This document shows, piece by piece, positions 19,660-52,605 of a stretch of DNA of 64,000 bases. The stretch comes from a virus. The position numbers and the translations under genes were made by a program. Every line of letters begins with the position of its first letter. Position 1 is the first letter of the stretch. Where the stretch lies: IMG/VR virus record IMGVR_UViG_3300038829_000269, positions 64,522 to 128,521 of that record. One strand, given 5' to 3'. The notes under the pieces were generated by a model. That model did no database searches. It was not told the origin of the DNA and saw only the letters and a program-made list of their open reading frames with translations.

Positions 19660-21342
19660 CTAGCGGAACTGGTTCTTGATGATGAGGAACGGTAGCTTCC
19701 CGATGTTGGGACGCCGCTGACCGAAAATCGCGGGACCGAGCTTCGCCGCGCGCACCGCGAGCACGTCGGCGCAGCACACGTCGTCGTGGTCCGACTCCGG
19801 CGCCTGGATGCGCCGGTTGATCCCGAACCCGATGATCTCCTGCTCCAGAGCCGTCCACTGACGCACGCCCTTCTGGTAGTCCATCATCAGGTCCATGGGC
19901 GTGTTCGAGTCGACGCACGGGTAGCGCAGCCAGCCCATCTGCAACTGGCGCTTGAAGTCCATGAACATAGAGGTCTTCATGTTCATCGACGCGCCGACGA
20001 TCAGTTTGTCGCTCGCGCCGAAGTTCACGGTCTGGGCCGGGAACCCCTCGTTCGCCAGTTCCGGGATGATAGCCGCGCCGTTCCCGCCGAAGTCACCGAG
20101 GATCAGGCGCGGCGAGTGGAACGGGCCCTGCTTGGAGAAGAGGTTGGTCAACTCGCGCTTCTGGTCGGGCGACGGCATGTCGGACCAGGTGCAGCCGAAG
20201 ACCTTGATCAGGATCGGTCCGTAGCGCTTCCACACGGCGACCGCCGTCTCGTCCGCTCCCGTCCCGGTCGCGAAGTCGATGCCGACGTAGAACTCCTCGT
20301 CCATCGCCATCTGGCGCGTCTGGTGCGGCATCGAGCCGCTGGTGAGGATCGCCTTCTCGCGCGCGTCGAGGAACAGGCCGAACTGCTCCAGCCACCGAAG
20401 CTCGTATTGGGTCAGGAAGTCGTTCAACTCCTGCTGCCCCGGGTAATAGAAGTCCGACGTGTGCGGGAAGATTCCCGCGCGGATGTAGGTCTCCTTCTGC
20501 GCGAGCGGCATCATGTCGAGCACGAACTTGCTGATCCGGCGCCCGTTGTGCTCCAGGTAGCCCTCGCGCAGGAGGTTGTCGCAGATCAGCCAGTGGTGCC
20601 AGGTCTTGATCGCCTTCGCGTCGTTGTGCCAGGTGTTGAAAAAGTGGTTGCGGATCGGGCGCACGGTCCCGATCTTGCTGATCTTGGCGCCGGTCGCGCC
20701 ACCCATCGGCAGGATGCCCTGGGACACGACCACGTCGCTGATCTTCTGGCCCTCTTCCAGGATGATCCGGTTCAGGGTCTTACCGTCGTTCTCCGCCTGC
20801 TCGGACGCCGAGTAGGTCCTGATCTCGCAGCCGTTGTGCCACACGATCCTGTCGGTCGTCGTCTGCTCCCAGTTGATGAGCGCGCGGCCCTGCTTGGTGC
20901 AGCGCGCCCAGGCTTTCAACCGATCGGTGTCCAACTGGGCCTGCGCCGCCTTCGGCGCGAAGATGCCGATCCGGTATGGCTCGGCGTGGTGCTTGTTCCA
21001 CTCGGGGCCCTCAACCTCGCAGTTGATCGCGCAGGCGACGGCCACCGACGAGGTCTTTCCGACCTGGCGAGGCTCGACCGTGATCGTGGTGCGCGCCTGC
21101 GCGGTTAGCGCCCCGACTATGTCCACCTGGTTTGAGCACAGCACCTGGTTGAAGTAGTAGTTCGTGAACCGCTGCGGGTCGATAAACTCCTGGGCGACGA
21201 CCGACGGAGCGATCACATCGTGCTCGATGTGCGCCTCAGGCGGTTCAGGAAGCGGAGTCGAGGCCATGGCGCTGAACGCCATCGCCAGGTCGACGACTAC
21301 CGATCCACTTCCGGCGTCCAATGGCCGTGCTGGTGTTTCCAT
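19660..21342 (-). CDS. terL: Terminase large subunit
   Basis: Walker A EPRQVGKTS, Walker B IILEEG, RNase-H-like VGIDFATG and C-terminal HDDVCCADVLA. Confidence 0.92.
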   Translation of the reverse strand: METPARPLDAGSGSVVVDLAMAFSAMASTPLPEPPEAHIEHDVIAPSVVAQEFIDPQRFTNYYFNQVLCSNQVDIVGALTAQARTTITVEPRQVGKTSSVAVACAINCEVEGPEWNKHHAEPYRIGIFAPKAAQAQLDTDRLKAWARCTKQGRALINWEQTTTDRIVWHNGCEIRTYSASEQAENDGKTLNRIILEEGQKISDVVVSQGILPMGGATGAKISKIGTVRPIRNHFFNTWHNDAKAIKTWHHWLICDNLLREGYLEHNGRRISKFVLDMMPLAQKETYIRAGIFPHTSDFYYPGQQELNDFLTQYELRWLEQFGLFLDAREKAILTSGSMPHQTRQMAMDEEFYVGIDFATGTGADETAVAVWKRYGPILIKVFGCTWSDMPSPDQKRELTNLFSKQGPFHSPRLILGDFGGNGAAIIPELANEGFPAQTVNFGASDKLIVGASMNMKTSMFMDFKRQLQMGWLRYPCVDSNTPMDLMMDYQKGVRQWTALEQEIIGFGINRRIQAPESDHDDVCCADVLAVRAAKLGPAIFGQRRPNIGKLPFLIIKNQFR

Positions 21343-21348
21343 CTGAAC

Positions 21349-21858
21349 CTAGACGGGCCGGTAGACCGGCGAGTCTCCTTTGATGTGGGTTCCGGGACGC
21401 AATGTGTCCGGGTGCGCGAGGGTCGGAGCTTTCTTCGAGATCGGCGCTTGGGTTTTTTCATCGAAGTCTTTCTCAAACTTTTCACGCTGCGCGCTGGTGA
21501 CGAACACGCGCGGCCCCTGTTCGATTCTTTCCCTCACGACCTTGGGCTCGTAGCCCGGCGTGTAGGGGATATCCGTCGCGTTGATCAGCGACTCGTTCGG
21601 CAGGAGCCGGACGTTGAGGGGCTTGGCCTTCTCCATGGAGATCGACGACATGTCGAGCACGGGAGGCAGCGGTTGGTTGATGAGGTTGGCGTCGATGTAT
21701 TCTTGCGGCAAACCGGGCGGAACGTCGAGCGACTGCTTCTTCTCCTCGGCGTCGGGCGCGGCCGTGGCCTGCGGCGCCGGGGCGGGCGCGGTGAACGCCG
21801 GGGCCTCGGGAGCCGTGCTGGCCATAGGCTTGCTGTAAAGGTCGCTCAAGTCCTTCAT
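21349..21858 (-). CDS. Pro/Ala-rich hypothetical protein
   Basis: 169 aa ORF, AGGAG RBS, ATGA coupling. Confidence 0.6.
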   Translation of the reverse strand: MKDLSDLYSKPMASTAPEAPAFTAPAPAPQATAAPDAEEKKQSLDVPPGLPQEYIDANLINQPLPPVLDMSSISMEKAKPLNVRLLPNESLINATDIPYTPGYEPKVVRERIEQGPRVFVTSAQREKFEKDFDEKTQAPISKKAPTLAHPDTLRPGTHIKGDSPVYRPV

Positions 21859-23237
21859 CTTCGGCTCCTGGACACGCGCTGGTCCATGTCCGTCTGCGTG
21901 ATCTCGCCCTGGGCGAAGAGTTCGAGCAGGGTCTCAGACAGGTCGGCTGAGGCCAGTCGCTCCATCTCCTGATCCATGTCCGCCTGCGTGATCTCCCCGC
22001 GCTCAAAGCGATCGTGAAGCACCGCCTCCTTCTTCTTGCGGCGCTCGACGCGATCAGGGAACTCCGCGTCCAACTCCTTCTCGAACTCGGCGTAGTCCTT
22101 GGCCGTGGGCGTCACGTTGCACCGGCCGCCGATGATCTCCTCGGAGCCGCACACCAGGCAGCGCGGATGGCCATTCGGGTGCGTCCACTTCGCGGGCTTG
22201 AAATCGTGAGGCTTCTTCGCCTCGGGCTTCTTCTTATTCTCCCGGATCAGTTCCGTCTCCTTCTCATAGGCCGGGCTGTGCTTCTTCTTAGCGAGGTGCG
22301 CCAACCATTCCCCGCTCGGCGTCGCGCCGTAGATGAACCCGGAGTCGGGCATCGCGTGGGCCACGACCATGTCGCCCTGGCCGCCACCGAGCACCGCCTG
22401 CTCCACGGCCTGGTTCAGCGCCGCGATCTCCGCGTCCGTCAAATTTGGCTGCCCGGCCATCTGGCGCTGCATGTTCACGACCATCTGCCAGTTGCCGAGC
22501 GCGTGTTCCATCGCCTTCTGATGGTTGAGGCCCATGGACCGGTCGCGCTTGTAGCTGGCGATCGCCTTGGGCAGGATCGCGGCCATCCAATCGGCTCCGC
22601 GCCTCGTCATCCACACCGCGCGCAGGCCGCCAAACAGGCGCATGGACTTGTCCTTGAACTGCTGCTCGTTGATCTCGCCCCGGTTCCTCATCTCGATCAG
22701 GCGATCGAACTCCGCGTCCTGGTCCACGCTCGGCACCGCGTCCACGTTCGTCTTCAGCTTCTTTGCGTGCTCAGGCCCGTGCTGGAAGTAGGCGTCGAGG
22801 AACGTGCGCGCCTCTTGCGGCGTGTCGAACTCCAGGGTCTCGTCCCCGAGGATAACCGGCCACTTGCCGCTCTTCATCGACTCCGGCGTGCCGATAAACG
22901 CCTCGGGGTTGATGTCCTCGCGGTCGAGCGGCGGCTCCACCTGGCGCATGGCCGAGACCGACTTGCGAAACTGGCTCTCGGTCACGAACAGCGACTGCCC
23001 GCTGCGGTCGATCACGAAGTAGACGAACAGGTCGTCCTTGTCCGTGACGAACAGCTTGGTCTCGGCCGGGATCGTGACCCACTCCTGCTGCGGCTTGGTC
23101 AGGTCCATGGATTTCTTGTCCCCGACCGTCGCGTCGAACTGCTGGTTCACCCAGTAGTAGCGAATGGCGCGCACGTCCTCGATGTTACGCATCGCTGACG
23201 TGCGCTGCTGCCACCGGCTGAGGAGTGGATTGCTCAC
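21855..23237 (-). CDS. Modular putative virion protein with SHOCT-like repeats, 460 aa
   Basis: GTG start with GAGGAG RBS; leader MSNPLLSRWQQRTSA; internal LRAVWMTRRGA; three R/QGEI[NT]-type helical repeats; HPRCLVCG...RC Zn module. Confidence 0.65.
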   Translation of the reverse strand: MSNPLLSRWQQRTSAMRNIEDVRAIRYYWVNQQFDATVGDKKSMDLTKPQQEWVTIPAETKLFVTDKDDLFVYFVIDRSGQSLFVTESQFRKSVSAMRQVEPPLDREDINPEAFIGTPESMKSGKWPVILGDETLEFDTPQEARTFLDAYFQHGPEHAKKLKTNVDAVPSVDQDAEFDRLIEMRNRGEINEQQFKDKSMRLFGGLRAVWMTRRGADWMAAILPKAIASYKRDRSMGLNHQKAMEHALGNWQMVVNMQRQMAGQPNLTDAEIAALNQAVEQAVLGGGQGDMVVAHAMPDSGFIYGATPSGEWLAHLAKKKHSPAYEKETELIRENKKKPEAKKPHDFKPAKWTHPNGHPRCLVCGSEEIIGGRCNVTPTAKDYAEFEKELDAEFPDRVERRKKKEAVLHDRFERGEITQADMDQEMERLASADLSETLLELFAQGEITQTDMDQRVSRSRR

Positions 23238-26400: not shown

Positions 26401-28960
26401 TATCGGTTCCGTCGAACGTGATGTCCAGGCCACGGTTCGATGGCATGGACACGATGGTGCCAGGCGCCTGCGGCACGACGGTCACGACCTCGGACCCGGC
26501 GGTCGCTCCACCGGTGTAGGACGCGGTGATGAAGTTCCCGGCGTTCCCGTCCGTGTTCGCCGTGTAGGTCACAGCCTGCGTCGTGAGCGTGGCGGCCACC
26601 GCGTCAACCCCGCTCCCCAGGTTCTGCGGGGCAGCGTCGTTGAGGAGTTGGCCGGTGCGGTTGCTCGACACGATCGTGTCGCTGGGAGTGTCGATCGCGA
26701 TGAAGAACCCCGTGCTGGTCGCGACCCACAGGTTGTTACCGATCACGACCCCGCGACGGGGGAGGCCGAACCCGGTGATGTCGATCGTCGTGAGCAGAGC
26801 CCCGGTGAATCTGTCCAGCTTCCTGATCAAGCTGCTCGTCCTGTCGATCGCGTAGATCGCGTTCACGTTAAAATCGACAGCCACGTCGTCCGGGTTATTC
26901 CCGGCCGGAACGATCTCGACGAAATACTCGTCGTTGTAGTCGAACGTCCTGACCTTGTCGTCAGGCGCGGTCTCGACCATGTGTAGATACTGGGCTGGCC
27001 CCCGCGTGATCCCACCCAGCGCACTGGCCCCGGACGGGAAGGTGTCGAGCAGCGTGTCGCCAGTGTCTATCTTCAGCAGGTCGCCGTTGTTCATCGTGAC
27101 CCAGAGATTTCCGTTCGCAAAGATTCCGGCGACCGGGAGGCCGGACGCGCTCACGTCTATCGTCCCTAACTGGTGGTCGGTCCCACCGCTGAAGCTCATC
27201 GGCGCGTTGTAGGGCGCCTGATTGTAGTTATGGATGGCGCTCGGCGATCCGGCGAACGCCCGGATCAGAGTCGAGGCCACCGGGTCAGCGTTCACCGCGT
27301 TCGCTATCTGGAACTCGCGCGCGAGTCCGGTTTGGTTGAAGACCGTGATCACGATGTCGTTCCCGGTCACGTCCACATCGGGCAGACCATCGCCCTTGAA
27401 CTCGAACTTGATCGTGAGGTTGTTGCCAGCCGTTCCATCTTGTAGCGCTGTGAACGCGAGGTTGAACACGCCGAGCGTCGCGTAGATCGGGTCTCGGTTC
27501 ACACGCCTGATTGTTGCGCTCGACTGGTCAATAATCCAGAGGTTGCTACCCCCGTCGGTCACGATCGAGTTGGGCTCCGATGTCTCTGGCTGGTCGAACA
27601 GGTTGTGGAATGTCTCGGCCACCGGATCGAACCGGTAGACCACGGGGTCTCCGCTCTGCCCGCTGCTCGCGAAGATGTAGGTCGCGTTCGATGTCAGGTA
27701 TCTCATTTGCTTGCCGGACACATAGGTAGAGACCACCGAGCCGGTCGCTGGATCGACCTTGTAGAGCGTGATAGAGTCGCACACGATCCACAGGTGCGAG
27801 AACGCGAAGATCATCTCGACTGGGCCTTCCGGGATCGTATAGGTGTTAAGCACCTGGCCAGAGAGGCTGACCCTTCTGATGAAATTTCCGCCCTGCCCCA
27901 TCATCCATAGGTCGGTCCCGTCATAGACCATGGAGTCCGATGTCTCGGGGCTGTAGTTCGGAGCCCCGTCGTCGAAATTCCAGGTGTTGGTCACGACGAA
28001 CGCGCCGGACCCGGTGTATGGGTTCGATCCGCCACCGCTCGGCGTCTGCCAGTTGGCGGCCGTCGCGCTGGTCGCGGTCAGGACCTGGCCGGTGGTCGGG
28101 GGCGCGGCGCTGGACACTACCACGTCGGCTCCCGTAGTGGCTAATGCTGAGGCGGGTCCTCCGGTCGGAGTCTGCCACGATCCAAGTCCGTTCGCGTCCG
28201 AGGTGAACACCTTGGTCGCGCCCTGCGTCCCGTCCACGATCTTCACCTGGCCTGTGAACGTGGAGAGGCCAGCGGAGTCGATGACGAGCGCGAGGACGCC
28301 GGTCGACATGCGGATCGACCCGTTTGGGAATCCGGCGTTGAGGTGGATTCTCCCCGTGTCATTGCTCCCCGGGAAGGTGAGCGTGATGTCGACGCCGGGC
28401 TCAGCCGCCCCCGTGAGGACCAGGGCGTTGCCCACGACGATCCTTGATCCGGCCTGGCTGAACTGGTTCGTCCCGGCGAGCAGCCGGATCGCTCCAGGCG
28501 CTCCGCCTGACGAAGCTCCGGGGTTTCCTCCGGTGAGCGTGATGTCACCGCCGCTGTTAAACGAATCGGCTCCGTTCCCAGCCGCGAGGTTGATCGAACC
28601 GCCGGGCCCGGAGACGCTGTTGTGCGCGGCCGAGATCGAGACGGCGCCGGGCGATCCCGAGGCGGTAATGGCAACAGTGAGCCCGTCAGTCGGCGAGAAT
28701 GTGAAGGCCGTGCTGCCCGTGATGTCCGTGCCGTTCGACCAGTAGGCGACCTGGCCAGCCACGCCCGACCCTCCGACACCGCCGCTCCCCGCCGACGGCG
28801 CCCATTGGGCGCCGTCGAACACCAGAGCCTGCCCCGGGGTCGGGGCCGTGGCCGAGATCGGAGTTCCCTTGATCTTGTCCACGGACACGGCATTACCCTG
28901 GCCGGAGATGTCTCCGCCGAGGTCTTTAATCTGCCTGCCGGTCAGTTGGGTCGCGCTCAT
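23414..28960 (-). CDS. Giant fibre/receptor-binding protein with multiple beta-propellers, 1848 aa
   Basis: N-terminal VDKIKGTPISATAPTPGQALVFDGAQWAP fibre motif; many Vgb-like blades (AFDGTNMW); four T-x-G-x-x-GN sheath-like modules. Confidence 0.75.
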   Translation of the reverse strand: MSATQLTGRQIKDLGGDISGQGNAVSVDKIKGTPISATAPTPGQALVFDGAQWAPSAGSGGVGGSGVAGQVAYWSNGTDITGSTAFTFSPTDGLTVAITASGSPGAVSISAAHNSVSGPGGSINLAAGNGADSFNSGGDITLTGGNPGASSGGAPGAIRLLAGTNQFSQAGSRIVVGNALVLTGAAEPGVDITLTFPGSNDTGRIHLNAGFPNGSIRMSTGVLALVIDSAGLSTFTGQVKIVDGTQGATKVFTSDANGLGSWQTPTGGPASALATTGADVVVSSAAPPTTGQVLTATSATAANWQTPSGGGSNPYTGSGAFVVTNTWNFDDGAPNYSPETSDSMVYDGTDLWMMGQGGNFIRRVSLSGQVLNTYTIPEGPVEMIFAFSHLWIVCDSITLYKVDPATGSVVSTYVSGKQMRYLTSNATYIFASSGQSGDPVVYRFDPVAETFHNLFDQPETSEPNSIVTDGGSNLWIIDQSSATIRRVNRDPIYATLGVFNLAFTALQDGTAGNNLTIKFEFKGDGLPDVDVTGNDIVITVFNQTGLAREFQIANAVNADPVASTLIRAFAGSPSAIHNYNQAPYNAPMSFSGGTDHQLGTIDVSASGLPVAGIFANGNLWVTMNNGDLLKIDTGDTLLDTFPSGASALGGITRGPAQYLHMVETAPDDKVRTFDYNDEYFVEIVPAGNNPDDVAVDFNVNAIYAIDRTSSLIRKLDRFTGALLTTIDITGFGLPRRGVVIGNNLWVATSTGFFIAIDTPSDTIVSSNRTGQLLNDAAPQNLGSGVDAVAATLTTQAVTYTANTDGNAGNFITASYTGGATAGSEVVTVVPQAPGTIVSMPSNRGLDITFDGTDMWVAGYPDNELTRISPDGFTKRLYSNFYDVPVATAWDGANLWVVTESGLTRLDPTTDLRMNVSLNGNTSPRAIAYDGLADATDLASGVPGGNMWVTNANSGFIYKVTTDGLITEFALSQTTAIAFDGTNMWIARNQANMVTKVTPAGVMTDYPVTGNPWDIAFDGVNMWTANDDSSVSKIDPSGVETNYPGLSGPATGIAFDGTDMWTADRGSGGFSRIDPSGTITSYAGPGPQFAKIAFDGEFMWAQADATDDLARVAALGAGPATNINTQIEAGVSTAQNVVDAVNGLPAAAALVTASTGAGGTLQSVAGYIPLAGGIDAVAAIYHVEGAGFYIDYTAVTPGTVGNAITIEYTAGGTAGSEIVSVVGDAISIQIESGVSKYQQVADAVNAFPAAAALVTVTTNSYTASALTGITRDDGSNFYLSDPTNKLVYRVDPNNGLQTMAQFVVPNTPDDIAFDGGGSLWSLDLTSTRIRRFDTSGQIFGGPSVAADGGLPRRMANELPSSVLFVTMDTGHILLLDAYSPAGGITRTLDTGAAGDLSGIYTNNASFYISAAGTTDAIALLFYDGGFYKHVIETMDLGNPADRITIGGNWFWTTNTGVDFVRKVNPANGSTAVSVSTAAEGSPLDIAVAGSILYITASNGKVMRLNMGLEQATAALTIQDLTFTSNTPGVAGNLFNVEYTDGATLGAANVTFYDGTRLVVQIDSGVTTAENVRQAIINTTGDGAFTTIVSGNELNQQTAPVAQTFFAGGGDIAATMIQSVVSGKSALAGISESMGWASGPNGPAVGFTSPSDGYLRLIANGLPSGVGDGFFYIGTVIFDGGPQRMAADATDLWVCDESGTDAPFRIGIASMDVIAHITGAFGGNNGAITVAIGGGFVYFGDNNFPTVHKIDPATNARVRPLNVGDGSGGNQFARVQGLFYDGSALWITCPQGSNFGTRMGIQKFVGDHSVAWVPALDGDQSGNHHPMVKVGDALFVRMNNNLHRLNTNLG

Positions 28961-28973: not shown

Positions 28974-30293
28974 TTAGTGGTAGCGGTAAGACGCGGTCAG
29001 CGTGTCGTTCGTCTGCGGAGCGCTCAGGTAGGTGATGTTCAACCCGCTGATCGTGTAGTCATTGCCCGCCCCGGAGCGCTGCTCCAAGCCGTTGAGGTGC
29101 AGGATTTCGGACCCGACGATCGGCGTGTTGGCCAGGGTGAACGCCGTGTTCGACCCGTTGATCGCCCCGCCCGGGACCTCGCGCGTCACGAACAGGCCGA
29201 CGGCGTTCAACTCGGCGGCCGTCGCGGTGACGGTCACGGAGTTCAAGCGCAGACCGTCGATCACGTCCAGGAACGCGCCGGACGCGACGGTCAGCGTGTT
29301 GCCCGAGAGGATCGTCTTGCTCGCGTTCGTGCGGAGCGCGGTCGCCCCGTCGCTCAGGTTGGCGAGCGCGATCTGCGTTCCGCCGACCCGGTAGACGCCC
29401 GTCACGTTCATGTCGCCGGTCACGGTAATGACGCCGCCGGACTCCGTCATGATCGAATCGGTGAGGGCCGTGCTGCCCGACCACTTCGGGATGGCGCCGG
29501 TCGTGCCGGAGCCGCTGAGTCCGCCGCCCGCGCCCGAGAACTGGGTGAATCCCAAGGGGTCGGTGCCCACGACCGCGTTCGGGATCGGCTGGTTGCAGAC
29601 CCAGCCGGTCTGCGCGTAGAGCGTGCCTTCCTCGATGAACGTGAAGTTGCCCGCCGCGTTCGATCCGGCCGCCATGTCCGCCGAGCGCGACCAGGCGCCC
29701 GCCGACACGATGAAGATGCCGTTCTGGACCGGGTTCGTCTGGCCGACGAGCAGCACGCGGTCGCCCGCGACGAGCGCCACGTCGTCGATCGTCTGCTCTC
29801 CGGTCAGGGCCACGTCCGCGACCGCGACCGCGCGGCACGAGTCCTTGATGTCGAGGCCCTGGGCCACGGAGTCGACATAGGCCTTGGACGCCGCGTCGCT
29901 GGCGGCGGACGGGGCGGCGAGGTTCGTGAGGTTGAACCCGCCCATCGACTGGTTGGCGGTGAACGCGCGCGTGCCGTTCGCCTTGATGTAGGATTCGACG
30001 AGGTTCGTGTCGAGGACCGTGGTCGCCGCGATCTTCGCGCCGGTGATCACCGCGTTCGCGATGGTCAAGACTCCGGCGGCGCTGATCGTCGCGTCGCCGC
30101 CCAGGGTCGCGGCCGTCGCGACTCCGGCGTTGCCCACGACGACCTGTCCGGTGCTCAGCGCGGCGAGCTTCGAGAAGGCGATCGCCGCCGCAGCGTTGAT
30201 CTCTGTGTTCGTGAGCGTGCCGGGCACGACTTTCGCGGCGGTGAGCGTCGCGTCCTTCGCCTGCGTTCCGAGATGAATCTGGGTTTGGGCCAT
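28974..30293 (-). CDS. Fibre/decoration protein
   Basis: LTGEQTIDDVALVAGDRVLLVGQTNPVQNGIFIV...FTFIEEGT domain typical of phage fibres; C-terminal AINGSNTAFTLANTP...YTISG Ig-like unit. Confidence 0.75.
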   Translation of the reverse strand: MAQTQIHLGTQAKDATLTAAKVVPGTLTNTEINAAAAIAFSKLAALSTGQVVVGNAGVATAATLGGDATISAAGVLTIANAVITGAKIAATTVLDTNLVESYIKANGTRAFTANQSMGGFNLTNLAAPSAASDAASKAYVDSVAQGLDIKDSCRAVAVADVALTGEQTIDDVALVAGDRVLLVGQTNPVQNGIFIVSAGAWSRSADMAAGSNAAGNFTFIEEGTLYAQTGWVCNQPIPNAVVGTDPLGFTQFSGAGGGLSGSGTTGAIPKWSGSTALTDSIMTESGGVITVTGDMNVTGVYRVGGTQIALANLSDGATALRTNASKTILSGNTLTVASGAFLDVIDGLRLNSVTVTATAAELNAVGLFVTREVPGGAINGSNTAFTLANTPIVGSEILHLNGLEQRSGAGNDYTISGLNITYLSAPQTNDTLTASYRYH

Positions 30294-30312: not shown

Positions 30313-30855
30313 TTAGAGGCGGTAGTCCGCCAACAGGTTCGTGTTCACGTCCGGCGCGGTCAGGAACGTGATGTTCGGTCCGACGATCGTGTAATCGACC
30401 GTAGGTCTCTGTCGGAGACCGCCTTTATACAGGTGCAGCGACCCGGGCGCAGGAGTGTTGGCCAGAGTGAAATTGGGGTTGGAGCCGTTGATCAGACCGG
30501 CAGGGACCTCGGAGTCGATGAACGTCAGGGTCCCGGCCGTGGACTGCCACTCGGCGGAGTCCGGCCCGGTCGCGACCAGCGCCTTGCCGATCGACGGCTG
30601 GTTCGTGATCTGGAAGTGATAGGGCCCGATCGCGGCGGGCTTGGCCTCGGCCTGGGGCGAGCCCGTGCTCGGCTCTTCCGGCCCCAGGTTCAGGAGGCCG
30701 CCGCTCGTGAGGAACGAGCCTAGCTGCTCGGACTTCTCCGCGTCCTCGTTGAAGACCAGGACCTCGACCCCGCCCGGGATCGGGAGTCCGAATCCCTGCC
30801 CGTTGGGCATGTCGCTGACGATGATCAGGCCGGTCGTGTTGTTCTTGAGCTTCAT
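30313..30855 (-). CDS. Decoration/fibre-like protein
   Basis: N-terminus paralogous to 38090..38647; C-terminal INGSNPNFTLANTP...DYTIVG unit shared with 28974..30293. Confidence 0.65.
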   Translation of the reverse strand: MKLKNNTTGLIIVSDMPNGQGFGLPIPGGVEVLVFNEDAEKSEQLGSFLTSGGLLNLGPEEPSTGSPQAEAKPAAIGPYHFQITNQPSIGKALVATGPDSAEWQSTAGTLTFIDSEVPAGLINGSNPNFTLANTPAPGSLHLYKGGLRQRPTVDYTIVGPNITFLTAPDVNTNLLADYRL

Positions 30856-30907: not shown

Positions 30908-31111
30908 TCACCACTTGGCGTTCTCCGGCCGCCGCTTCCGTTCTCGCTCGCTCACCATCTGCCAGCCGCGACAATGACGGTCCGCGCACGGGCCATTGCA
31001 CTCCTCGGCCTGAAGACCGAGACTCTTGATCTTCTCGTTGGATAGGGTGCTGTGCTCGTAAAACCACTGCTCGAACTCCCAGCGCGTCGTCATCTTCGGT
31101 AATTTGGCCAT
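30908..31111 (-). CDS. Small Cys-containing hypothetical protein
   Basis: 67 aa; ECNGPC...CRGW. Confidence 0.5.
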   Translation of the reverse strand: MAKLPKMTTRWEFEQWFYEHSTLSNEKIKSLGLQAEECNGPCADRHCRGWQMVSERERKRRPENAKW

Positions 31112-31114: not shown

Positions 31115-34100
31115 TCACAGTCGGCACCTGCCACACCAGCCCCGCTCGCCGGGTTTCTTCCCCGGCCATTCGTGAGAACACTCTTGGACCGCGCCCGGCG
31201 ACCTCTGCTCGTGGATCGCCGTCGTCTCACCGGCCCGACGCCGCCAAATATCCTTGATCCCGGCGCTCAGCGATCGGATGCGCTGCTCGATCTGCTGCTT
31301 CTTCGCCGGGTCCTGCTCCAAAGCCAGTTGGTCGAGGAGCGAGTCGATCTTCGACTGCACGTCGCCCTGGTTCATGGTCGGAACGTGCTCGACGCTCGTT
31401 GGCTCCGGGTCCTTGAGCAAGGAGAACTCGGCGGTCCCACCGTCGAACCGGATCACGCCGCGATCGAGCATCTGGCCGATCACCTGCTGCACCATGTCCG
31501 CGAACGGCCGGTCGAAATCCGCGACCTCTCCGTTTTCATCGAGCATCACGCCCTTACCCTCTCCGATCAACTCGCTCAGGTCGCGCGAGATCGTGGACGG
31601 CCCCTTGCGGAGCAGGTCGACGATGTGGTTCTCGATCATCTTGGGGTTGGACGGGATCGACTGCTCTGGGACCTGGCCCACGACGCCGCCGCTCACGACG
31701 AAGCGCAGGTCGTCGGCGCGCACCACGCCAGAGCCGCGCGTCGGGAGCCCGGCGCCCGCCTTGCCCTTCGGCGGCCAGAACGTGATCTTCAGGAGTTCGG
31801 GCGAGCCGCCGTGGTTCAGCCGGAACTTCTTGAGAACCTTGACCGTGGTGCCCTTCGGCAGCACGAAGCTATCGACGTGATCGCCCTGGCCCTTGGACGC
31901 GCGCTCCCAGACCCGCAGGTCGTCGGTCAGCACCATCTGAGAACCAGGATCGTCGACCATCGCGGCCGTCTTCTCCTTCACGCGCTGGCTCTTGGGCACG
32001 AGCTTCAGAAACTCGTCCCACGACATCTTCTTGATCCCGCCGAAGTGGGCCTTCTCCATGTGCTCCAGGTAGCTGGCCTTGGCCTCGGCCTCGGACGAGT
32101 AGCCGAGCATGATCTTGTCCTCGTCGTATTCCCCGGTCTTCTTGTCGAGTTGGGTGACGACGAACGCGAGGTCGGAGTCCCGATCGGGACCCGCGTAAAC
32201 GTCGATCTCCTCACCGTCCTCGCCCTCGGTCTGCCGGATGTAGCCGTAGTCGGCCTTCATCAGCTTCTCGTAATCATTGCCCGGCAGGTGCTTCCACGTC
32301 CGGGTGCTGCCCTTCGGCCACTCGATGCCGACCTTCACCCCGTTGATCTCGATGATCTTCTTCAGCGGGTCGTTGGCCTGGCGCATGACCCAGCGCTCGA
32401 ACATCGAGCCCATCTTGTAGTCGGGGTTGATCGGCGTGCGGCCGACGCCAGGCTTCTTCACGCCGACCAGGGCCGGGATCGAGTCCATGCCAAGGACCAT
32501 GGCCTGCGCGGTGCGATGGTTCCCGTCCATGACCCAGAGCACGCCGTCGTCGCCCCTGATCACGACCACGGGGTTCGCCTCGATCTCTCGACGCTGCGCG
32601 CGCGCGCCGCCCTTGAGCCGTGGCTCGCCCATGTCGGCGAGGTAGTCGGCCGACTCCTCGTCGAGCCACTGCTTGGTGTCCTCGATCGGGTCCTTTCCGA
32701 AATTGGTGTCGCGCGGGTTGATCCTGGTCAGCGTCCAGACGAAGTCCGTGACCTTCTGCGCGATGCCGCTGCCCGCGATCTCGTCCTCGTTGATCTGGCC
32801 GAGGACCTGGTGAATGAGCGCGGCCTGATCGTCACCGGCGCGCCGGTGCCAGCGGCTGAGCAACGAAGAGGAAATCTGCTTCATGCGGCGGCGCAGCGTC
32901 TTCTCGTCGATCTCTCCCCGGTTAAACTTGTCGAGCAGGCTGTCCTTGGTCTCGGTCGGCACGTCCTTGAGCGTCATGGTCCCGGGCTTGCGGCAGTCGA
33001 TCGAGTGGCCGTCGCCGGGACACTCGCGGCTCCCGCAGGTGGGGCAACGGCGCGTGGACATGTCGTCGTTCGCCATGCACTCGTCGCAGAAGCACTCGGG
33101 GCCGTGCTTGTATCCCGTCCCCTCGCCGTAGCCGATGTCGGTCGCGGCGCGGAACTCCTGGACCGGCGCGGAATACTGGTTGGTCTTCATCACCCGGCCG
33201 CGCACGATGATCTTGGAGTAGATCGGGCTGTAGAAGAAAATCGTGTGGTCGTTGCTGTGCGGCTGGACGCCGACCACGGCGCCCTTCGGCAGCACGGCCT
33301 CGTTCTCGGTCCCGGAGTCGGAGCCGATCGCGGTGCACCGAAGTTCCCTGAGCAGCTTCTGCTCGCTGTTCGCGGCGCGCCGCTCGCGCCACTTCTGGGT
33401 GAGCGAGTTCAGGTGCAGGTTCTCGGGACCGCCGCCGCCCCACTCGATGATCAAGGACGAGAGCCTGGCCTTCGCCTCGTCCATGGTCATGCCCATGTCC
33501 TTGTGCAGGACCACGGCCATGTTCATCAGGAGGTCGGCGGCCTGCTGCGGGCTCATGAGGTCGGCGCGCTGCTGCTCGAACATCGAGAACGCCGCCTGCT
33601 TGAGCCGGTCTTCGCCCCCGGGCTCCTGGAGCTTCTGGTTCGCCTCGTCCCGGCCGTAGCCGAAATAGTCGAGCGCGCGCTCGATGTCCGGGTAGAGCGA
33701 GATGTTCTGCGACTCGCGGATGTTCGCGTTCGGCTCGATCTTCATCGCGGCGTAGGTGTAGAGCCGCCCCACGAGTTCGGTGAACTGCTGTCCGACGGCC
33801 GCGTCGTGGATGATCCGATCGTCGGTCCTGAGCTTGAGCCACTGGTCGATGTCCTTCGTCGGCATCATGACCGGGACCTCTTGGCCCCGGTAGGTGATGG
33901 TCCCGATCTGGGTCTCGGCCTGAGCAGCGCGACGCGCGCGCCACGCGGCGACCAGCGGGTGGCGGACCATGTCGTCGGGCCCCTGCGTGCGATCGCGCTC
34001 GAAGCCCTGATCCTTGTAGAGGTTCTTGAGCGCGGGCTTCGGAATCCTGGGCTCGCCCGTGGGCTTCGCGTGCAGGTCGAGCGGCACGCCGTATTCGTCG

Positions 34101-37100
34101 GCGAGCGCCGTGAGCCAGGCCAGGCACTCGCGCGCCCGGCCCTTGCGCGGGTCCATCGACTGGAGCCATTTGAGCGTGATGATCCACGGATACTCGGGAT
34201 CGGGGCCGCCGCGCCACGGGTGAACCTCGACGATCACGCTGTCGTTCCACACGCGCTGGCCCCTGGTGAACGGGTGCCCGGCCGTCTGGTCGTAGACCGC
34301 CTGCATGAACGCCTGAATCTGGTCGGGCCACGGGGCGTTGAACGGCCCGCTGGCCGGGTCCGCGCCCTCGGCCCGGCGCGAGAACCACCTGGCGAGCAGC
34401 GACGCGGTCGGCATCTGCCCGCTGGGGTTGGCGCGCGCCGTCTCCTCGTCCGCCAACTCGTCCATCGACGGATAGCGCGGGTCGCCCACGTTTGTGATCA
34501 GGTAGTCCGGCGCCCCGAACTGGGAGTGGGTGATGTCGATCACCTTCCCGTCCAACTGGAGCCAGTCGTGAGACCAAAGGTTCCCGTTCGCGTCGCGATA
34601 ATAGGAGGAGATGTGCTCCGGCTCCATCTCGGCGGCGAACAGGTGGTCGGCCAGCGCCTCGCTGTCCCCGGTGCAGTCGAGACCGCCAGCCCAGTCCTCG
34701 GCCACCCTCCCGTCCCAGTAGGCTTTCATCAGCTTCTCGACCAGCGCCCAATCCGTCCCGCCAGCCCGACGCTGATTCCAAGAGGAGAGGAGGCTCTGCC
34801 GTTCCCCGCCGGTATTTTTTTGGAGCACGAGCAAAACCTGCTCCGGCGTCGGGATGCGCTCCCAGTCCTGGACCACGTTCCCGGCCTGATCCGTCCGGCG
34901 CCCCGAACGCGGGAAGCTCGGGTCGATCTGGATCATCGCCTGCCAGATCGTGCCGAACCCGGAGATGATGATCGACTGGATGTCGTCCCACGAGTCGGTG
35001 GTCGGGTTCTGGAGGAAATTGAGAATCCGCTTCCTGATCTCTGGCGAGAGCGGACCGAACATGTTCCGAGCCTTGTCCAGCGCGGGACCGAGGTCGCGCA
35101 TCGGCCGGGCGGCCACCTTTTCCAACCAAATGGAGAGAAGCGGCCTCTGCCGTTCTCCGGCCCTGAAAAAATTCGAGGTGCTGCTCGCGGTCAGGCCCAT
35201 GATGTTCCCGGACATCGGATGATCCCAGGGCTCGGACTGCGGGAGGAGGAAGGCGTCCACGACCCCGCCCGTGATCTCCGCGACCTTGGCCCGGAACGCC
35301 TGGTTCGCCTCGGACATCAGCGCGTTCCCGGAATGGAAGACCACCACGTCGAGATCGGAGTCGTCGCGCGCGTCGCCCTTCCATCGCGACCCGGTCAGAT
35401 GCACGCTCGTGATCTGGTGATCGCGATGCTCGCGCGCCCCGCTCTTGGTGAACGCGGTCCACAGGTCGCCGATCAGCATCTGGGGATCGGAGAATCCGGC
35501 TTGGGCCAGGACCTCGACCGGCGAGCGCTTCACGACCACCTTCTCCTTCTTCTTGCTCGTGGGGTCGTAGGCGTCGCCGCGTCGAGTCCAAGCCTCGCTG
35601 CTCGAATCCCAGAAGCCGGACTCGTCCTGGTGGCGCTCGTCGATCTCCCCAAGGTAGGTGAACTTCCGGTAGCAGCGGCCATCGCCCATCGGGTTGTAGC
35701 ACTCGCCCTTGGACGGGGCCCACGAGCACTTCTTGCAGTAGCTCATGATCGCGCCGAGATGGTTCGTGGTCTCGGCCTGGACGTGGCCGCACACCGTGCA
35801 CTGGTAGCGGCGCCAGGTGTTCTTCACGATCTCGGGGTCCGGCGCCCAAAGCTGATCCTTCTCCGCGCGGCGCACGAGGAACAAGGCGCGCAGCGCGCGC
35901 AGCGACTTCAACTGCTGCTCGATCTGGGGACGGGCCCCGGGCTCCGACTGCCACCGCTCCAGCAGCGCGTCGACCTTCTGCTGGCGATCGCCCTCGCTCA
36001 TCGTGTTCACCTGGCTCAGATCGGTGGGCGCCACGGGCTTCATCCCCCACTGGTTGCGCGCCTCGTTGAACTCGATCTCGCCATCGCGCTCCAGGCGGTT
36101 GAGCGCGTATTCGTAGACCGTGACGAAGTTCGCGTCGTAGGGCCAGCGCGAGGACTCGACGGCCTTCATCCCGAGTTCGTCAGGGGTCAACGGCGACTTT
36201 CGGAGTTCGTTCGCGATGAACGAGATCAGGCGACCGGCCTCCTGGTTGAAAGCCTGGGGCGGAACCGGGTTTGCGTCCGGCACCTTCTTCTGAGCGGCGC
36301 CCACGCCCCCGTTCTTGCGCCGGTCGTGGATCAAAATCCAATCGGTTCCCTTGCTAATCTTGTCGATCACGTTCTCGTCGATCAGGTCCTTGATCGCGCG
36401 CGCAAACGGGCCCCAGGACGAGAGGTCCGCACCCTTGATCTGGTTGAAAAGCTCGTGGGCCTTGATCCTGAACTGGTTGGTCGACGGCTCGTCGCGGCGC
36501 TTGAACTCGACCCAGTCGAGGATCGCTTGGCGGAAGGGGTCGGCCGCCGCCGCGCGCGAGAGCCACCGCGCCCTGAGCGTCGCGAGCCGGATCACAAGAT
36601 CGTTGCCCGAGTCGAAGCGCCGCATCTCGCCCTCGTGCTCCTGGATCAGGCCGTCGCTAAGCATCCGGTTGAGGAGCGAGCGCATCCCGGGCTCGGTGTC
36701 CTCCATCACCAGGTGATCGTGCTCCTGGAGCGCGGCCAAGATCAGTTTCTGCATCAAGCCCTGCTGGCGATAGGCGGGGTCGGTCGCGGCGAGCCCCGCC
36801 GTGTTCCCCGTGATCAGCAGGTAGCTGAACATGCCCTTGGGCAGCGGAGAGTCCCAGTTCCCGGTCGCATAGAAATTTTGGTCGGCCGACTGCGGGTCGA
36901 AATCGGGCGTGACCAGCGCCCAGAGTTCGCCGTCGTCCACCGGCCAGTGGCGGACGTTCGGCGTCTGGTGCTCATCATTCTGCTGCGTCGCGCTCTTCTC
37001 GCCGAGCGCGCGCTCGTCGTCCTTCTTCAGTTCCTGGACCTCGTCCTCGATCCGGTCGAAGCGCTTCAGGTCCTCGCGCACATGGGACTTGGGCAGTTCG

Positions 37101-38083
37101 ATGGTCTCGCGCTCGGCCGCCTTCCTCTCGATGCACTCGGGGTCCGTGCACCGACCCGCGCGGTGCCAGCCCGCGCTCCGGCCGCAGGAGCGCGCCGCCG
37201 CCAGGCGCCCATCCATCTCCGCGTGGATCAACTTGAAGTTGATAAGGTAGTTCGCGTATTCCTCTTTCTTGTCGAGCGGGTGCGCGGCACAACAGGCAGA
37301 GAGTCGTCCGTCCTGATCCGTGTTCGCGAAGCGCTTGTGGTTCGCCGCCGCCTCGCGCACGATGGACGAGGGGGGGAGGTCGCCCGGATAGACGACCGAT
37401 CCCTTCCCAGCGTGGTTCTCGTCCTGCTCCGCGTTCAGATCGGGCTCCAGGCGCGCGGCGTCCGGGACCAGGACCTCGAACACGACGACCCCTTCTCCCA
37501 TCTGGGTTTCGAGATTGGCGAACGCCTCGGCCTCGTCCGGGGTCGTCGCGAGGTAGACCGGACCGCGCAGCCCGTCCCTCTTGATCGAGTCCGCGTTCCT
37601 CGCGGGCGTCCCGTGATAGTAGCGGCGGGCCGCCGCGCTCTTGGTCGGACCGTGACCATGAGCTTGGTCATCCTCACCATGCTGCTCGCCATCGGGATGA
37701 GGGGGACCTCCGGGCTCGGTCGTCTGCTGCCGGAGGACCGGCCACCCGAAGTTGGCGCGCAGCCGATCGCTGAGCGCGTGCCAGTCGATCTCGTTGAGCT
37801 TGATCCCGGGGAACCGATGCCAGTGGTCGCGGGTCGCGGGCTCCGACACCCAGCCGATGGCCGCGCCCATCACCCAGTCGTGGAAAAGCTGAGCGTCCTC
37901 GTTCGGGTCGAGGTTGTCGACGATCATCTCGGTCTGGGTCGCGGTGATCCTCTCCAGCGGACCGCTGGTCAGGAACTTGAAGAGCCGGTCGGTGGACACG
38001 CCCTCTCGGCCGGGCGTGGCGGAAGACGAGAGGATGCTGTCCCTCATCGCCCTCCGCGCACGCCAGACCGAGTTCAGGCTCAT
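31115..38083 (-). CDS. Polyvalent protein, 2322 aa (ART-like, 2x GNAT, nucleotidyltransferase, Cys-His-Asp module, ParB-like, pyrophosphatase-like, wHTH, Zn modules)
   Basis: YYHGT..GPVYLATT; DPAYRQQGL; PRKGRARECL..LYKDQGF; TGSRWKGDARDDSDLDVV; DCTG..WSHDWL..IDIT; VMDGNHR; IEWPKGSTR..DYGYIRQTEGEDGEEIDVY..YDEDKIMLGY. Confidence 0.85.
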   Translation of the reverse strand: MSLNSVWRARRAMRDSILSSSATPGREGVSTDRLFKFLTSGPLERITATQTEMIVDNLDPNEDAQLFHDWVMGAAIGWVSEPATRDHWHRFPGIKLNEIDWHALSDRLRANFGWPVLRQQTTEPGGPPHPDGEQHGEDDQAHGHGPTKSAAARRYYHGTPARNADSIKRDGLRGPVYLATTPDEAEAFANLETQMGEGVVVFEVLVPDAARLEPDLNAEQDENHAGKGSVVYPGDLPPSSIVREAAANHKRFANTDQDGRLSACCAAHPLDKKEEYANYLINFKLIHAEMDGRLAAARSCGRSAGWHRAGRCTDPECIERKAAERETIELPKSHVREDLKRFDRIEDEVQELKKDDERALGEKSATQQNDEHQTPNVRHWPVDDGELWALVTPDFDPQSADQNFYATGNWDSPLPKGMFSYLLITGNTAGLAATDPAYRQQGLMQKLILAALQEHDHLVMEDTEPGMRSLLNRMLSDGLIQEHEGEMRRFDSGNDLVIRLATLRARWLSRAAAADPFRQAILDWVEFKRRDEPSTNQFRIKAHELFNQIKGADLSSWGPFARAIKDLIDENVIDKISKGTDWILIHDRRKNGGVGAAQKKVPDANPVPPQAFNQEAGRLISFIANELRKSPLTPDELGMKAVESSRWPYDANFVTVYEYALNRLERDGEIEFNEARNQWGMKPVAPTDLSQVNTMSEGDRQQKVDALLERWQSEPGARPQIEQQLKSLRALRALFLVRRAEKDQLWAPDPEIVKNTWRRYQCTVCGHVQAETTNHLGAIMSYCKKCSWAPSKGECYNPMGDGRCYRKFTYLGEIDERHQDESGFWDSSSEAWTRRGDAYDPTSKKKEKVVVKRSPVEVLAQAGFSDPQMLIGDLWTAFTKSGAREHRDHQITSVHLTGSRWKGDARDDSDLDVVVFHSGNALMSEANQAFRAKVAEITGGVVDAFLLPQSEPWDHPMSGNIMGLTASSTSNFFRAGERQRPLLSIWLEKVAARPMRDLGPALDKARNMFGPLSPEIRKRILNFLQNPTTDSWDDIQSIIISGFGTIWQAMIQIDPSFPRSGRRTDQAGNVVQDWERIPTPEQVLLVLQKNTGGERQSLLSSWNQRRAGGTDWALVEKLMKAYWDGRVAEDWAGGLDCTGDSEALADHLFAAEMEPEHISSYYRDANGNLWSHDWLQLDGKVIDITHSQFGAPDYLITNVGDPRYPSMDELADEETARANPSGQMPTASLLARWFSRRAEGADPASGPFNAPWPDQIQAFMQAVYDQTAGHPFTRGQRVWNDSVIVEVHPWRGGPDPEYPWIITLKWLQSMDPRKGRARECLAWLTALADEYGVPLDLHAKPTGEPRIPKPALKNLYKDQGFERDRTQGPDDMVRHPLVAAWRARRAAQAETQIGTITYRGQEVPVMMPTKDIDQWLKLRTDDRIIHDAAVGQQFTELVGRLYTYAAMKIEPNANIRESQNISLYPDIERALDYFGYGRDEANQKLQEPGGEDRLKQAAFSMFEQQRADLMSPQQAADLLMNMAVVLHKDMGMTMDEAKARLSSLIIEWGGGGPENLHLNSLTQKWRERRAANSEQKLLRELRCTAIGSDSGTENEAVLPKGAVVGVQPHSNDHTIFFYSPIYSKIIVRGRVMKTNQYSAPVQEFRAATDIGYGEGTGYKHGPECFCDECMANDDMSTRRCPTCGSRECPGDGHSIDCRKPGTMTLKDVPTETKDSLLDKFNRGEIDEKTLRRRMKQISSSLLSRWHRRAGDDQAALIHQVLGQINEDEIAGSGIAQKVTDFVWTLTRINPRDTNFGKDPIEDTKQWLDEESADYLADMGEPRLKGGARAQRREIEANPVVVIRGDDGVLWVMDGNHRTAQAMVLGMDSIPALVGVKKPGVGRTPINPDYKMGSMFERWVMRQANDPLKKIIEINGVKVGIEWPKGSTRTWKHLPGNDYEKLMKADYGYIRQTEGEDGEEIDVYAGPDRDSDLAFVVTQLDKKTGEYDEDKIMLGYSSEAEAKASYLEHMEKAHFGGIKKMSWDEFLKLVPKSQRVKEKTAAMVDDPGSQMVLTDDLRVWERASKGQGDHVDSFVLPKGTTVKVLKKFRLNHGGSPELLKITFWPPKGKAGAGLPTRGSGVVRADDLRFVVSGGVVGQVPEQSIPSNPKMIENHIVDLLRKGPSTISRDLSELIGEGKGVMLDENGEVADFDRPFADMVQQVIGQMLDRGVIRFDGGTAEFSLLKDPEPTSVEHVPTMNQGDVQSKIDSLLDQLALEQDPAKKQQIEQRIRSLSAGIKDIWRRRAGETTAIHEQRSPGAVQECSHEWPGKKPGERGWCGRCRL

Positions 38084-38089
38084 GGTGTT

Positions 38090-38647
38090 CTAGGCGTTCA
38101 TCGCGTCGAGCTTCGCCTTCATCTCGTTGATGAGCGCGACCGCCGCGTCGTATTTCGCCTTCAGGTCGTTGGCCAGGTCGATCACGGCCTGGGCCTCGGC
38201 CTGGACGTAGCCGACGGACGCGGGACCGGCGGCGGCCACCAGGGTGACCACCGCGTCGGCCTCGACGAGCACCGTGCTCTTCAGCGCCTTGAGATCGACC
38301 TCGTCCTTGCGCGCGGCGTCGCCGAGCGCGGACGGCGCGCCCAGGCCCGTGACCTTGAACCCGCCCATCGCGATCGCGCCGGTCATCGTGCCGCCCGCCT
38401 TGGGCAGCGCGTCGGCCGCCAGCGAACCGGACTGGTCCGCGACGTTCGAGCCGTCCAGCGGCTCCTCGTCCGAGAGCTTGGTGATGACCCCGGCGGTGAT
38501 CAGCGAAGACAACTGGGACGAGCGCTCGGCGTCCTCGTCGAACAGCAGGTGCTCGGCCTGCGTCTGGAGCGTGAGCCCCTGGCCCGACTGTCCGCCGGGC
38601 AGGTCGCTGATCGACACGCTGCCGGTCGACACGTTCTTGATCTTCAT
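38090..38647 (-). CDS. Head decoration/fibre-like protein
   Basis: 185 aa; AAGGAG RBS; GGTMTGAIAMGGFKVTGLGAPSALGDAARK fibre motif; C-terminal coiled coil. Confidence 0.65.
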   Translation of the reverse strand: MKIKNVSTGSVSISDLPGGQSGQGLTLQTQAEHLLFDEDAERSSQLSSLITAGVITKLSDEEPLDGSNVADQSGSLAADALPKAGGTMTGAIAMGGFKVTGLGAPSALGDAARKDEVDLKALKSTVLVEADAVVTLVAAAGPASVGYVQAEAQAVIDLANDLKAKYDAAVALINEMKAKLDAMNA

Positions 38648-38973
38648 CTGGTTCTCCTTAAAACGTCTTGGGGTTTACCCGTCAGCGCGTGGCCGTCGGG
38701 GCACTGCGAAATCGGCGCTTGCAGCATCTCGCGCTCGAAGTGGCGCGAGTCGAAATCCTTCGTCAGGTCCTCGATCCACTGGCGGCTCACTGGCCGGGCC
38801 GTGGTCCAGCACAGCGGGTGGACTAGATCGTGGACCTGCTCGTCCACCTGGTCCACTTGGAGCCGCCCGTCCGTCGAGCGCCGGGTGCCGGGAGCGTGGA
38901 CTAGATCGGGAGCGCGGTGGTCCCCGTAGTCCACAGTGTTCAGCGAATCGCGATGTTCACCCGCGCTGAACAT
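38644..38973 (-). CDS. Hypothetical protein, 109 aa (doubtful; overlaps motif cluster)
   Basis: Coupled at both ends (TAATG, ATGA) but N-half is shaped by GTCCAC repeats. Confidence 0.35.
   Translation of the reverse strand: MFSAGEHRDSLNTVDYGDHRAPDLVHAPGTRRSTDGRLQVDQVDEQVHDLVHPLCWTTARPVSRQWIEDLTKDFDSRHFEREMLQAPISQCPDGHALTGKPQDVLRRTR
38817..38935. repeat. Cluster of six GTCCAC/GTGGAC hexamers including a 13-bp direct repeat
   Basis: GTGGACTAGATCG at 38818-38830 and 38896-38908; TAGTCCAC read three times across both strands. Confidence 0.6.
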
Positions 38974-44780: not shown

Positions 44781-44938
44781 GGGCGCCGATCAAGCTGCCT
44801 TCTGATCTCATCGCCGGTCCGCTTCAGCCACGAGGCGCGCAGCCTGAGCAGCGCAGTCGGATCGCGCTCGATCAGCGCGCGCACCATCTCCTCCTTCTCC
44901 AGGCGCTCCATCTCGCGGAACGTGATTAGTCTGCCCAT
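44777..44938 (-). CDS. Hypothetical protein, 53 aa
   Basis: MGRLITFREMERLEK...; start lies inside the upstream tag DNA. Confidence 0.5.
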   Translation of the reverse strand: MGRLITFREMERLEKEEMVRALIERDPTALLRLRASWLKRTGDEIRRQLDRRP

Positions 44939-48271: not shown

Positions 48272-48274
48272 GGC

Positions 48275-48810: not shown

Positions 48811-48813
48811 GGC

Positions 48814-51602: not shown

Positions 51603-51603
51603 C

Positions 51604-52602: not shown

Positions 52603-52605
52603 GTT

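Follow-up and report, generated by a model that had tools for sequence, protein, structure and literature searches.

What does a short peptide do that recurs about a dozen times along a single giant phage protein? The question is raised by the polyvalent cargo gene (locus A) of a 64,000-nucleotide stretch of viral DNA, hereafter the window, which covers positions 64,522 to 128,521 of the IMG/VR virus record IMGVR_UViG_3300038829_000269 (139,276 bp, classed as a provirus and about 79% complete). The gene occupies positions 31115..38083 on the minus strand and encodes a protein of 2322 amino acids (aa). A phage is presumed to deliver its polyvalent proteins, which are huge and change fast, as its first weapons into the cell. 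An initial annotation of the sequence had described this one as a string of effector domains separated by about 12 W-x-x-R-R-A delimiters, each at a domain boundary, and had read it as a polyprotein released as separate effectors. Our analysis indicates that the peptide marks exchange units, heads two cargo proteins of the same phage (the second being encoded at locus B) and co-evolves within lineages, and we tentatively propose that it also serves as an address.

The open reading frame (ORF) claimed by the initial annotation is real. It translates through 2322 stop-free codons, and its G+C content (GC) by codon position fits that of a coding frame (0.91 at the third position, GC3, and 0.44 at the second, GC2), while the antisense open frame at 31172-38929 (+) is a high-GC shadow in a record of ~65% GC whose genes lie nearly all on the minus strand. 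Matches to the Pfam families InPase and NTase (nucleotidyltransferase) and syntenic homologs of 1005-3902 aa further support the gene. The same peptide is present in nine homologs from metagenomes, 2167-3831 aa in length.

A peptide motif confined to cargo genes

All 12 delimiters that had been listed initially are present where they had been placed: 10 pass a position matrix, one is an N-terminal copy and one is degenerate. The strict form W..RRA occurs five times in the 2322-aa protein, against a mean of 0.03 in shuffled sequences (none of 2000 shuffles reached five); a loose form occurs 11 times against 0.38, and RRA by itself 8 times against 1.08. The matrix was trained on the family and used with a threshold of 6 bits, which corresponds to about 0.5 false matches over the whole family. 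The 10 sites that pass it score 18-32 bits, and the N-terminal copy (aa 7) is a full match that was dropped from the scan by the length of the scanned segment alone.

Over the family, the matrix identified 101 unique copies in 10 proteins. W occupies position 0 and R position +3, each in 92/101 copies; S stands at -5 in 69/101, and the remaining conserved positions are L, F or I at -4, R or L at -3, R at -1, R or A at +4 and A at +5. The full motif, S-[LFI]-x-x-R-W-x-x-R-[RA]-A, is therefore about 11 residues long. The W-x-x-R-R-A core as first written stands, but it was drawn too short, the residues at -5, -4 and -1 also belonging to the motif. R-R-A is found in two registers relative to W, as W-x-x-R-R-A in 39 and as W-x-R-R-A in 29 of 100 copies. 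The motif is also written in dialects: proteins P0009-11 (subclade B) mostly use A-S-F-R-x-R-W and the rest (subclade A) mostly S-L-L-x-x-W, all copies within a lineage sharing one dialect. The motif-bearing clade is small, with 13 representatives among 1.84 billion proteins.

The motif is confined to these cargo genes. No match of at least 12 bits was found in 39 other InPase polyvalent proteins. In the coding frames of the 139-kb genome and of 10-kb flanks of the relatives L001-L005, matches of at least 9 bits occur elsewhere only in the locus-B protein, namely its leader in the window and an internal delimiter in L002. A criterion of at least 4 bits adds one match that is likely outside any coding frame (10.1 bits) and a borderline site in a 459-aa ORF.

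Selection acts on the motif as a peptide and not as DNA, because its codons are not conserved: delimiters share a codon at 68 of 204 same-residue positions, where 80 would be expected from the codon usage of the gene, and the longest exact nucleotide match between any two of them is 11 nucleotides. A DNA repeat or recombination site, as in shufflons or integrons, which would call for conserved nucleotides at the cassette borders, was rejected on these two counts. Internal translation starts were also rejected, since the motif is accompanied neither by a start codon nor by a consistent Shine-Dalgarno sequence.

The borderline delimiter-like sequence in the 459-aa ORF (9937-11316), T-R-L-G-E-R-W-Q-Q-R-R-S-D (10096-10128 (-), 7.3 bits), lies in the head-gene region, ~60 aa before the C-terminus of the protein. 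Outside the window, in the helicase region (L008), a 259-aa ORF at genome positions 14915-15691 (+) has a possible leader-like start, M-G-L-F-D-F-W-K-R-R-R-E-G, which may be due to chance as the loose pattern matched 4 of 166 ORFs.

Cassette exchange at the motif

It is at the motif that related phages have swapped, gained and lost cassettes. A delimiter is found no more than 10 aa away from 37.7% of the ends of BLASTP blocks, against 8.2% under random placement (maximum of 14.6% in 1000 trials), with block starts clustering at -8 to -4 and block ends at +4 to +8 relative to the delimiter. The order of the cassettes is permuted between relatives. Between P0001 and the 92%-identical P0003, a ~240-aa cassette of P0003 exactly replaces the WLEKVA delimiter, the junctions falling directly after ...GERQ and directly before ARPMRD; in P0004, which is 85% identical, a different cassette fills the interval between two delimiters, and homology is regained immediately after RRAA, at ETQ. 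The plug-and-play domains supposed by the initial annotation are thus borne out by block ends, permuted order and swap junctions alike, and orthologs gain, lose and permute units at the motif, as it had anticipated. A conserved short site at the junctions of functional units, such as a polyprotein has, is therefore present. The claim that each delimiter falls at a domain boundary is supported by the clustering of block ends. The converse does not hold: some boundaries have no motif, aa 13-506 and aa 1898-2279 each being multi-domain.

One module is found in every member of the family, and its alignment shows how delimiters move. Conservation of this universal module (aa 1572-1735; 32879..33370 (-)), which comprises a beta-rich part, a Cys cluster and a SHOCT-like helix, begins 2-3 residues past the upstream R-R-A, runs through the downstream delimiter to its W and then stops; each delimiter therefore travels with the cassette before it. 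The module occurs once in each of 10 relatives at 66-90% identity and its tiny family counts 13 representatives in 1.84 billion proteins. It has no PDB sequence match and no Atlas neighbour above 0.8. Its AlphaFold2 (AF2) model is poor (predicted local distance difference test score, pLDDT, of 42), the SHOCT-like helix being the only confidently modelled part (pLDDT 74-80).

Along the protein, with all features on the minus strand, the motif is first met in the leader copy M-S-L-N-S-V-W-R-A-R-R-A (38048..38083). It is followed by W507 (TLRARWLSRAA; 36548..36580; 29.1 bits) and by the variant F735 (ALRALFLVRRA; 35864..35896; 22.2 bits), which follows a conserved helix, QIEQQLKSLRA, found ahead of other delimiters too. 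The degenerate W832 (SSEAWTRRGD; 35573..35605) scores below the matrix threshold and is the positional equivalent of a full P0005 delimiter (aa 1417) that follows the same Zn-ribbon cassette. Between it and W986 (PLLSIWLEKVA; 35111..35143; 18.1 bits) lies a pol-beta-type NTase motif region (aa 889-922; 35318..35419; PF01909, E 1.5e-4, 22.5 bits against a cut-off of 21). W1102 (SLLSSWNQRRA; 34763..34795; 31.1 bits) and W1233 (SLLARWFSRRA; 34370..34402; 26.8 bits) flank a Cys-His-Asp module with a predicted transglutaminase/papain-like fold, an accessory cassette (aa 1108-1228; 34400..34762). W1381 (PLVAAWRARRA; 33926..33958; 23.9 bits) is the right junction of the cassette replaced in P0004. 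Both W1565 (SLTQKWRERRA; 33374..33406; 25.5 bits) and W1745 (SLLSRWHRRAG; 32834..32866; 31.8 bits) are part of the universal-module alignment; the latter is in the W-x-R-R-A register and follows a SHOCT-like helix (RGEIDEKTLRRRMKQI). W1898 (SMFERWVMRQA; 32375..32407; 27.5 bits) stands 10 aa before the InPase domain (aa 1908-2027; 32003..32362; PF18823, E 7e-36). The last delimiter, W2280 (GIKDIWRRRAG; 31229..31261; 24.4 bits), is followed by a C-terminal Cys/His tail (...C-x-H-x-W-P-G-K-K-x-G-x-x-G-W-C-G-R-C-x-L; 31118..31228) common to P0001, P0003-6, P0008, P0053 and P0054.

With InPase, NTase and Cys-His-Asp modules in one chain, the protein combines several unrelated domains, in agreement with its initial description as a phage polyvalent protein. 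The domain names given at that time fared unevenly. InPase and the pol-beta NTase are recovered by Pfam and the papain-like module by its predicted fold; GNAT and ParB-like domains were not confirmed, and ART is weak, PDB sequence searches with aa 1750-1897 (claimed to be ParB-like) and aa 130-506 (claimed to hold ART and GNAT domains) returning only a weak Tpt1/KptA match (E 0.13). The polyvalent proteins of relatives carry ART-PolyVal and thymidylate kinase.

The motif itself is predicted to form a helix of roughly three turns between flexible stretches. From -4 to +4 it contains no Gly, Pro or acidic residue and has a mean net charge of +3, and Gly and Pro rise on both sides. In the AF2 model of the Cys-His-Asp cassette (pLDDT 81), both flanking delimiters are helices that span exactly -4 to +5 (residues 3-12 for W1102 and 134-144 for W1233) and are detached from the core, with pLDDT of 51-66 against more than 90 for the core. 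An argument from amphipathicity was dropped, as the hydrophobic moment is not above random (0.38 vs 0.30). A SHOCT-like helix of the form R-G-E-I-[DT]-x-x-x-h-x-x-x-M directly precedes several delimiters, and Pfam gives a sub-threshold SHOCT match in the locus-B protein. The resemblance to the SHOCT domain (PF09851) is limited to this helix, however: the delimiter lies outside the SHOCT model and most delimiters have no SHOCT-like helix.

The motif as leader and its possible roles

In 10 of the 11 locus-A proteins, the motif is conserved at the N-terminus, where it directly follows the initial Met, as in MSLNSVWRARRA, MDLKSAWRDRRA, MTVGILSRWRRRRA and MADLFGRWRARLA. At the opposite end, four members finish with a delimiter 8-12 residues from the C-terminus and the others with the conserved Cys/His tail. 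The second cargo gene, locus B (21855..23237 (-)), lies two genes before the large terminase, has a GTG start and encodes 460 aa identical to the 460-aa database protein P0057. It opens with the leader M-S-N-P-L-L-S-R-W-Q-Q-R-T-S-A (23193..23237 (-); 11.6 bits). Its homologs at the same genomic position begin with MSEPILSRWRQRQSA, MGDGLLSRWTERHAG, MANAMFSRWLQRK, MIDSLLNRWVERRAA and similar peptides, the leader being recognized in 10 of 14 by a strict pattern and in 12 by eye. Further inside is a weak delimiter, W209 (GLRAVWMTRRGA; 22596..22628 (-); 4.6 bits), at whose equivalent place the homolog P0059 has FGFKTTWFLRRA (14.9 bits). The first module varies between phages, one version being a LigT/2H/Acb1-like phosphoesterase domain, and three short versions that lack this module nevertheless have either the leader or the internal delimiter at their start.

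Copies follow Met clade-wide in two proteins and persist in versions that have lost the first module, which shows that the peptide has some role at the front of a cargo unit. The same N-terminal peptide on otherwise unrelated cargo of one phage, which is what a packaging signal would provide, is found at loci A and B. Residues 305-401 of the locus-B protein match, at 66% identity, a cassette of P0010 that has delimiters on its flanks; the genes of both loci therefore draw on one cassette pool.

Many unrelated phage proteins share, at 55-78% identity, a ~55-aa element of the locus-B protein (aa 318-374; 22116-22286 (-)) that contains …YEKETELIRENKK…H-x-F-x-P-A-K-W-T-H-P-N-G-H-P-R-C-x-x-C-G…. 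Its hosts include fusions to portal, Mu F, XkdF-protease, NUDIX, ParB and InPase domains, and no Pfam family covers it.

We favour, with a probability of roughly 0.45, the view that the motif is both a seam and a portable address tag read by one partner, possibly with cutting beside it. A single phage-encoded partner would read all copies of the motif, the likeliest candidate, to judge from the capsid-targeting sequence of T4 and the N-terminal packaging signal of P1 DarB, being the machinery for loading cargo into virions. Repetition of the tag at each seam would provide multivalent attachment, and any cassette, wherever it landed or however the gene was split, would still have a valid tag ahead of it. 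Loading may involve a cut next to the tag, after R-R-A or before Ser, as it does in T4.

Several points weigh against the address tag. The extreme C-terminal copies of four members would be superfluous for a tag that acts purely at the N-terminus. The partner is still hypothetical and the phage has no cultured relative, a tblastn search against 50,697 phage records matching the InPase domain alone. The helix reading rests on the spacing of conserved residues and on low-confidence AF2 segments, because the hydrophobic moment is not elevated. The two R-R-A registers fit a linear site, for instance a protease site, better than one rigid helix face. Finally, a location of the protein in the head is an assumption, because in subclade A the gene sits between baseplate-like and fibre-like genes.

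The explanation that survives best after the address tag, albeit a doubtful one, is the polyprotein of the initial annotation: the motif would be mainly a proteolytic site, and cuts there, in the particle or after entry, would yield about a dozen effectors from the giant protein. A conserved site at nearly every cassette junction, placed between flexible stretches, speaks for it, and so does the retention in two registers of R-R-A followed by A, G or S, as would be expected of a linear site. MARTX toxins free their effector domains at inter-domain sites by means of an embedded cysteine protease domain, and the prohead protease of T4 removes the capsid-targeting sequence. Candidate cutters are the embedded Cys-His-Asp module, an unrecognised phage protease or a host protease. 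The C, H and D of the module are invariant across 11 paralogs, and its predicted papain/transglutaminase-like fold matches transglutaminase-like proteins, McjB-type leader peptidases (McjB C-terminal domain), NlpC/P60 and the thiol-protease-like region of Pasteurella multocida toxin. Processing of polyvalent proteins by a zincin metallopeptidase, together with the polyprotein analogy, was already proposed by Iyer et al. 2017 (PMC5512222).

Nevertheless, no universal protease was recovered. The zincin signature HExxH is absent from all 10 family members, so that the embedded zincin-like metallopeptidase, a common but not obligatory feature of polyvalent proteins, is not found here. Four of 14 members (P0006, P0009, P0011 and P0054) lack the Cys-His-Asp module, which is triplicated in P0005 and not supplied in trans in the loci examined; it was rejected as a dedicated processing enzyme and behaves as one more cassette. 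The universal module was rejected as a protease as well, its candidate S-N-D-H not being kept and its divergent copies having no conserved His. No match to the S78, S77 or ClpP families was found in the 139-kb record, itself about 79% complete, and the motif is missing, at 9 bits or more, from the capsid and other virion-region proteins, which together led us to reject a general prohead-protease site. Among the proteases searched, none thus accompanies the sites wherever they occur. Moreover, all that a cut could free at a copy right after Met, or at one 8-12 residues short of the C-terminus, is a tiny peptide. A role purely as a cutting site leaves unexplained the post-Met copies of 10 of 11 members, the leader of the second protein and the near-C-terminal copies.

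Address tag and cutting mark could also be combined. In that case multivalent tags would bring the whole 250-kDa chain of a dozen anti-host enzymes into the particle, and cuts beside each tag would then release separate effectors, under a grammar shared by two genes. This combination is more doubtful again than cutting as such; if true, newly captured domains would stay both loadable and releasable, in a phage counterpart of MARTX-type delivery.

It is unlikely that the motif is simply a passive seam, that is, a neutral linker which insulates neighbouring domains, within which junctions survive and which nothing reads. Cassette junctions do lie at the edges of the motif, the modelled helices are detached from the folded core, and degenerate copies exist (WTRRGD, WLEKVA and a P0003 copy, IRFKMLLA). 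Yet a neutral linker would not be expected to keep W and the R at +3 at their high frequency across unrelated cassettes, to be retained at the N-terminus, where nothing needs insulating, or to show lineage-wide dialects; 39 other polyvalent proteins manage without it, and there is no DNA-level homology to guide recombination. Least probable of all is a generic ligand, in which a basic Trp helix binds DNA, RNA or a membrane interface and thereby tethers the domains to the packaged genome or helps them to cross the envelope, for although the net charge, the lack of acidic residues and a Trp and Arg composition like that of arginine-rich nucleic-acid-binding and Trp/Arg membrane-active peptides would suit it, it requires neither the conserved Ser at -5, the hydrophobic residue at -4 nor the Ala at +5, does not predict lineage dialects and finds no elevated hydrophobic moment.

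Should the motif be a loading tag, it would offer a handle for packaging foreign proteins in phage particles and an aid to recognising cargo genes in uncultured phages. Should it be cut as well, a polyvalent protein would for the first time have a defined processing code.

Genomic setting and comparison with known systems

The locus-A gene is phage-encoded and lies beside virion and packaging genes, as indicated by conserved synteny with the terminase and by its origin from an IMG/VR virus record. The terminase context (19660..21858 (-)) consists of a 169-aa gene in the small-terminase position (21349-21858) and of the large terminase (19660-21342; phrog_2 terminase large subunit, E 1.6e-14), ~10 kb downstream of the polyvalent gene within the window. 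The 918-aa protein encoded at 14047-16803 is probably the portal. In subclade B, one gene 3.7-3.9 thousand codons long precedes the terminase genes, with a single ~200-aa gene between. The InPase part matches minor head or virion proteins and a DarB-like family in PHROG and tblastn searches. Host or provirus borders were considered and rejected: the large ORFs beyond the window resemble those of phages (helicases, SbcC-like, beta-helix fibre), and none was recognisable as a host gene.

Two paralogous genes for proteins of ~180 aa (38090-38647 (-) and 30313-30855 (-)) stand on either side of the polyvalent gene, their products having N-termini of the form MK[IL]KN-x-[ST]TG…[IV]SD[LM]P. The C-terminus of the second resembles that of a 439-aa head-decoration/fibre-like protein (28974-30293). 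Directly after the polyvalent gene comes a conserved 67-aa gene (30908-31111 (-)), also present in L001, L002 and L005, with a Cys cluster, C-N-G-P-C-x-x-x-H-C-R-G-W, reminiscent of the Cys/His tail of the polyvalent protein. An 1848-aa protein in the fibre position (23414-28960 (-); 1412-1848 aa across relatives) has Vgb-lyase-like and SGL beta-propeller matches.

A different terminal peptide occurs elsewhere in the window. Seven ORFs in the region 43951-58347 (-), with ends at 43951, 44286, 44926, 46360, 47427, 48038 and 57850, share the C-terminus [E/D]-P-[T/N]-L-x-E-[V/I/L]-W-x-D-stop. Its codons vary, the stop overlaps the following ATG in five of the seven cases, and the same tag ends three baseplate-region proteins in the relative L006. 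The cluster is closed by an R2K-clade ATP-grasp gene (PF14243; 42848-44044 (-)), which is a candidate reader of this C-terminal tag because RimK-type ligases modify protein C-termini.

Among known systems, the closest in architecture are the polyvalent proteins of Iyer et al. 2017 (PMC5512222), which are likewise giant phage chains of unrelated enzymatic domains encoded beside virion or packaging genes. They differ in that the zincin proposed for them is absent here, and the 39 other InPase members lack the motif. That paper reports no recurring boundary peptide, its text containing 'linker', 'boundaries' and 'shuffl' 0 times, and a full-text literature search gave none either; the initial annotation had known of no description of the delimiter grammar, and these searches agree with it.

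MARTX toxins and viral polyproteins resemble the locus-A protein as strings of interchangeable effectors with short sites between them, whose content varies by cassette exchange between strains. MARTX toxins carry a dedicated universal cysteine protease domain that cuts at simple Leu-containing linkers. In contrast, no universal protease was found in the phage family, where cleavage is putative.

The internal proteins of T4 have only the capsid-targeting sequence in common (PMC3012670), and in P1 encapsidation needs no more than the first 30 residues of DarB, which is itself a polyvalent protein (PMC9024508). Both signals are short N-terminal peptides on otherwise unrelated cargo, in P1 on a 250-kDa polyvalent protein, as is the leader of loci A and B; they have no sequence similarity to the motif, and targeting by the latter is putative. 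Whereas the T4 and P1 signals are each present as a single N-terminal copy, the motif described here is repeated internally 10-15 times, at every seam between cassettes, so that each cassette of the giant protein is flanked by it.

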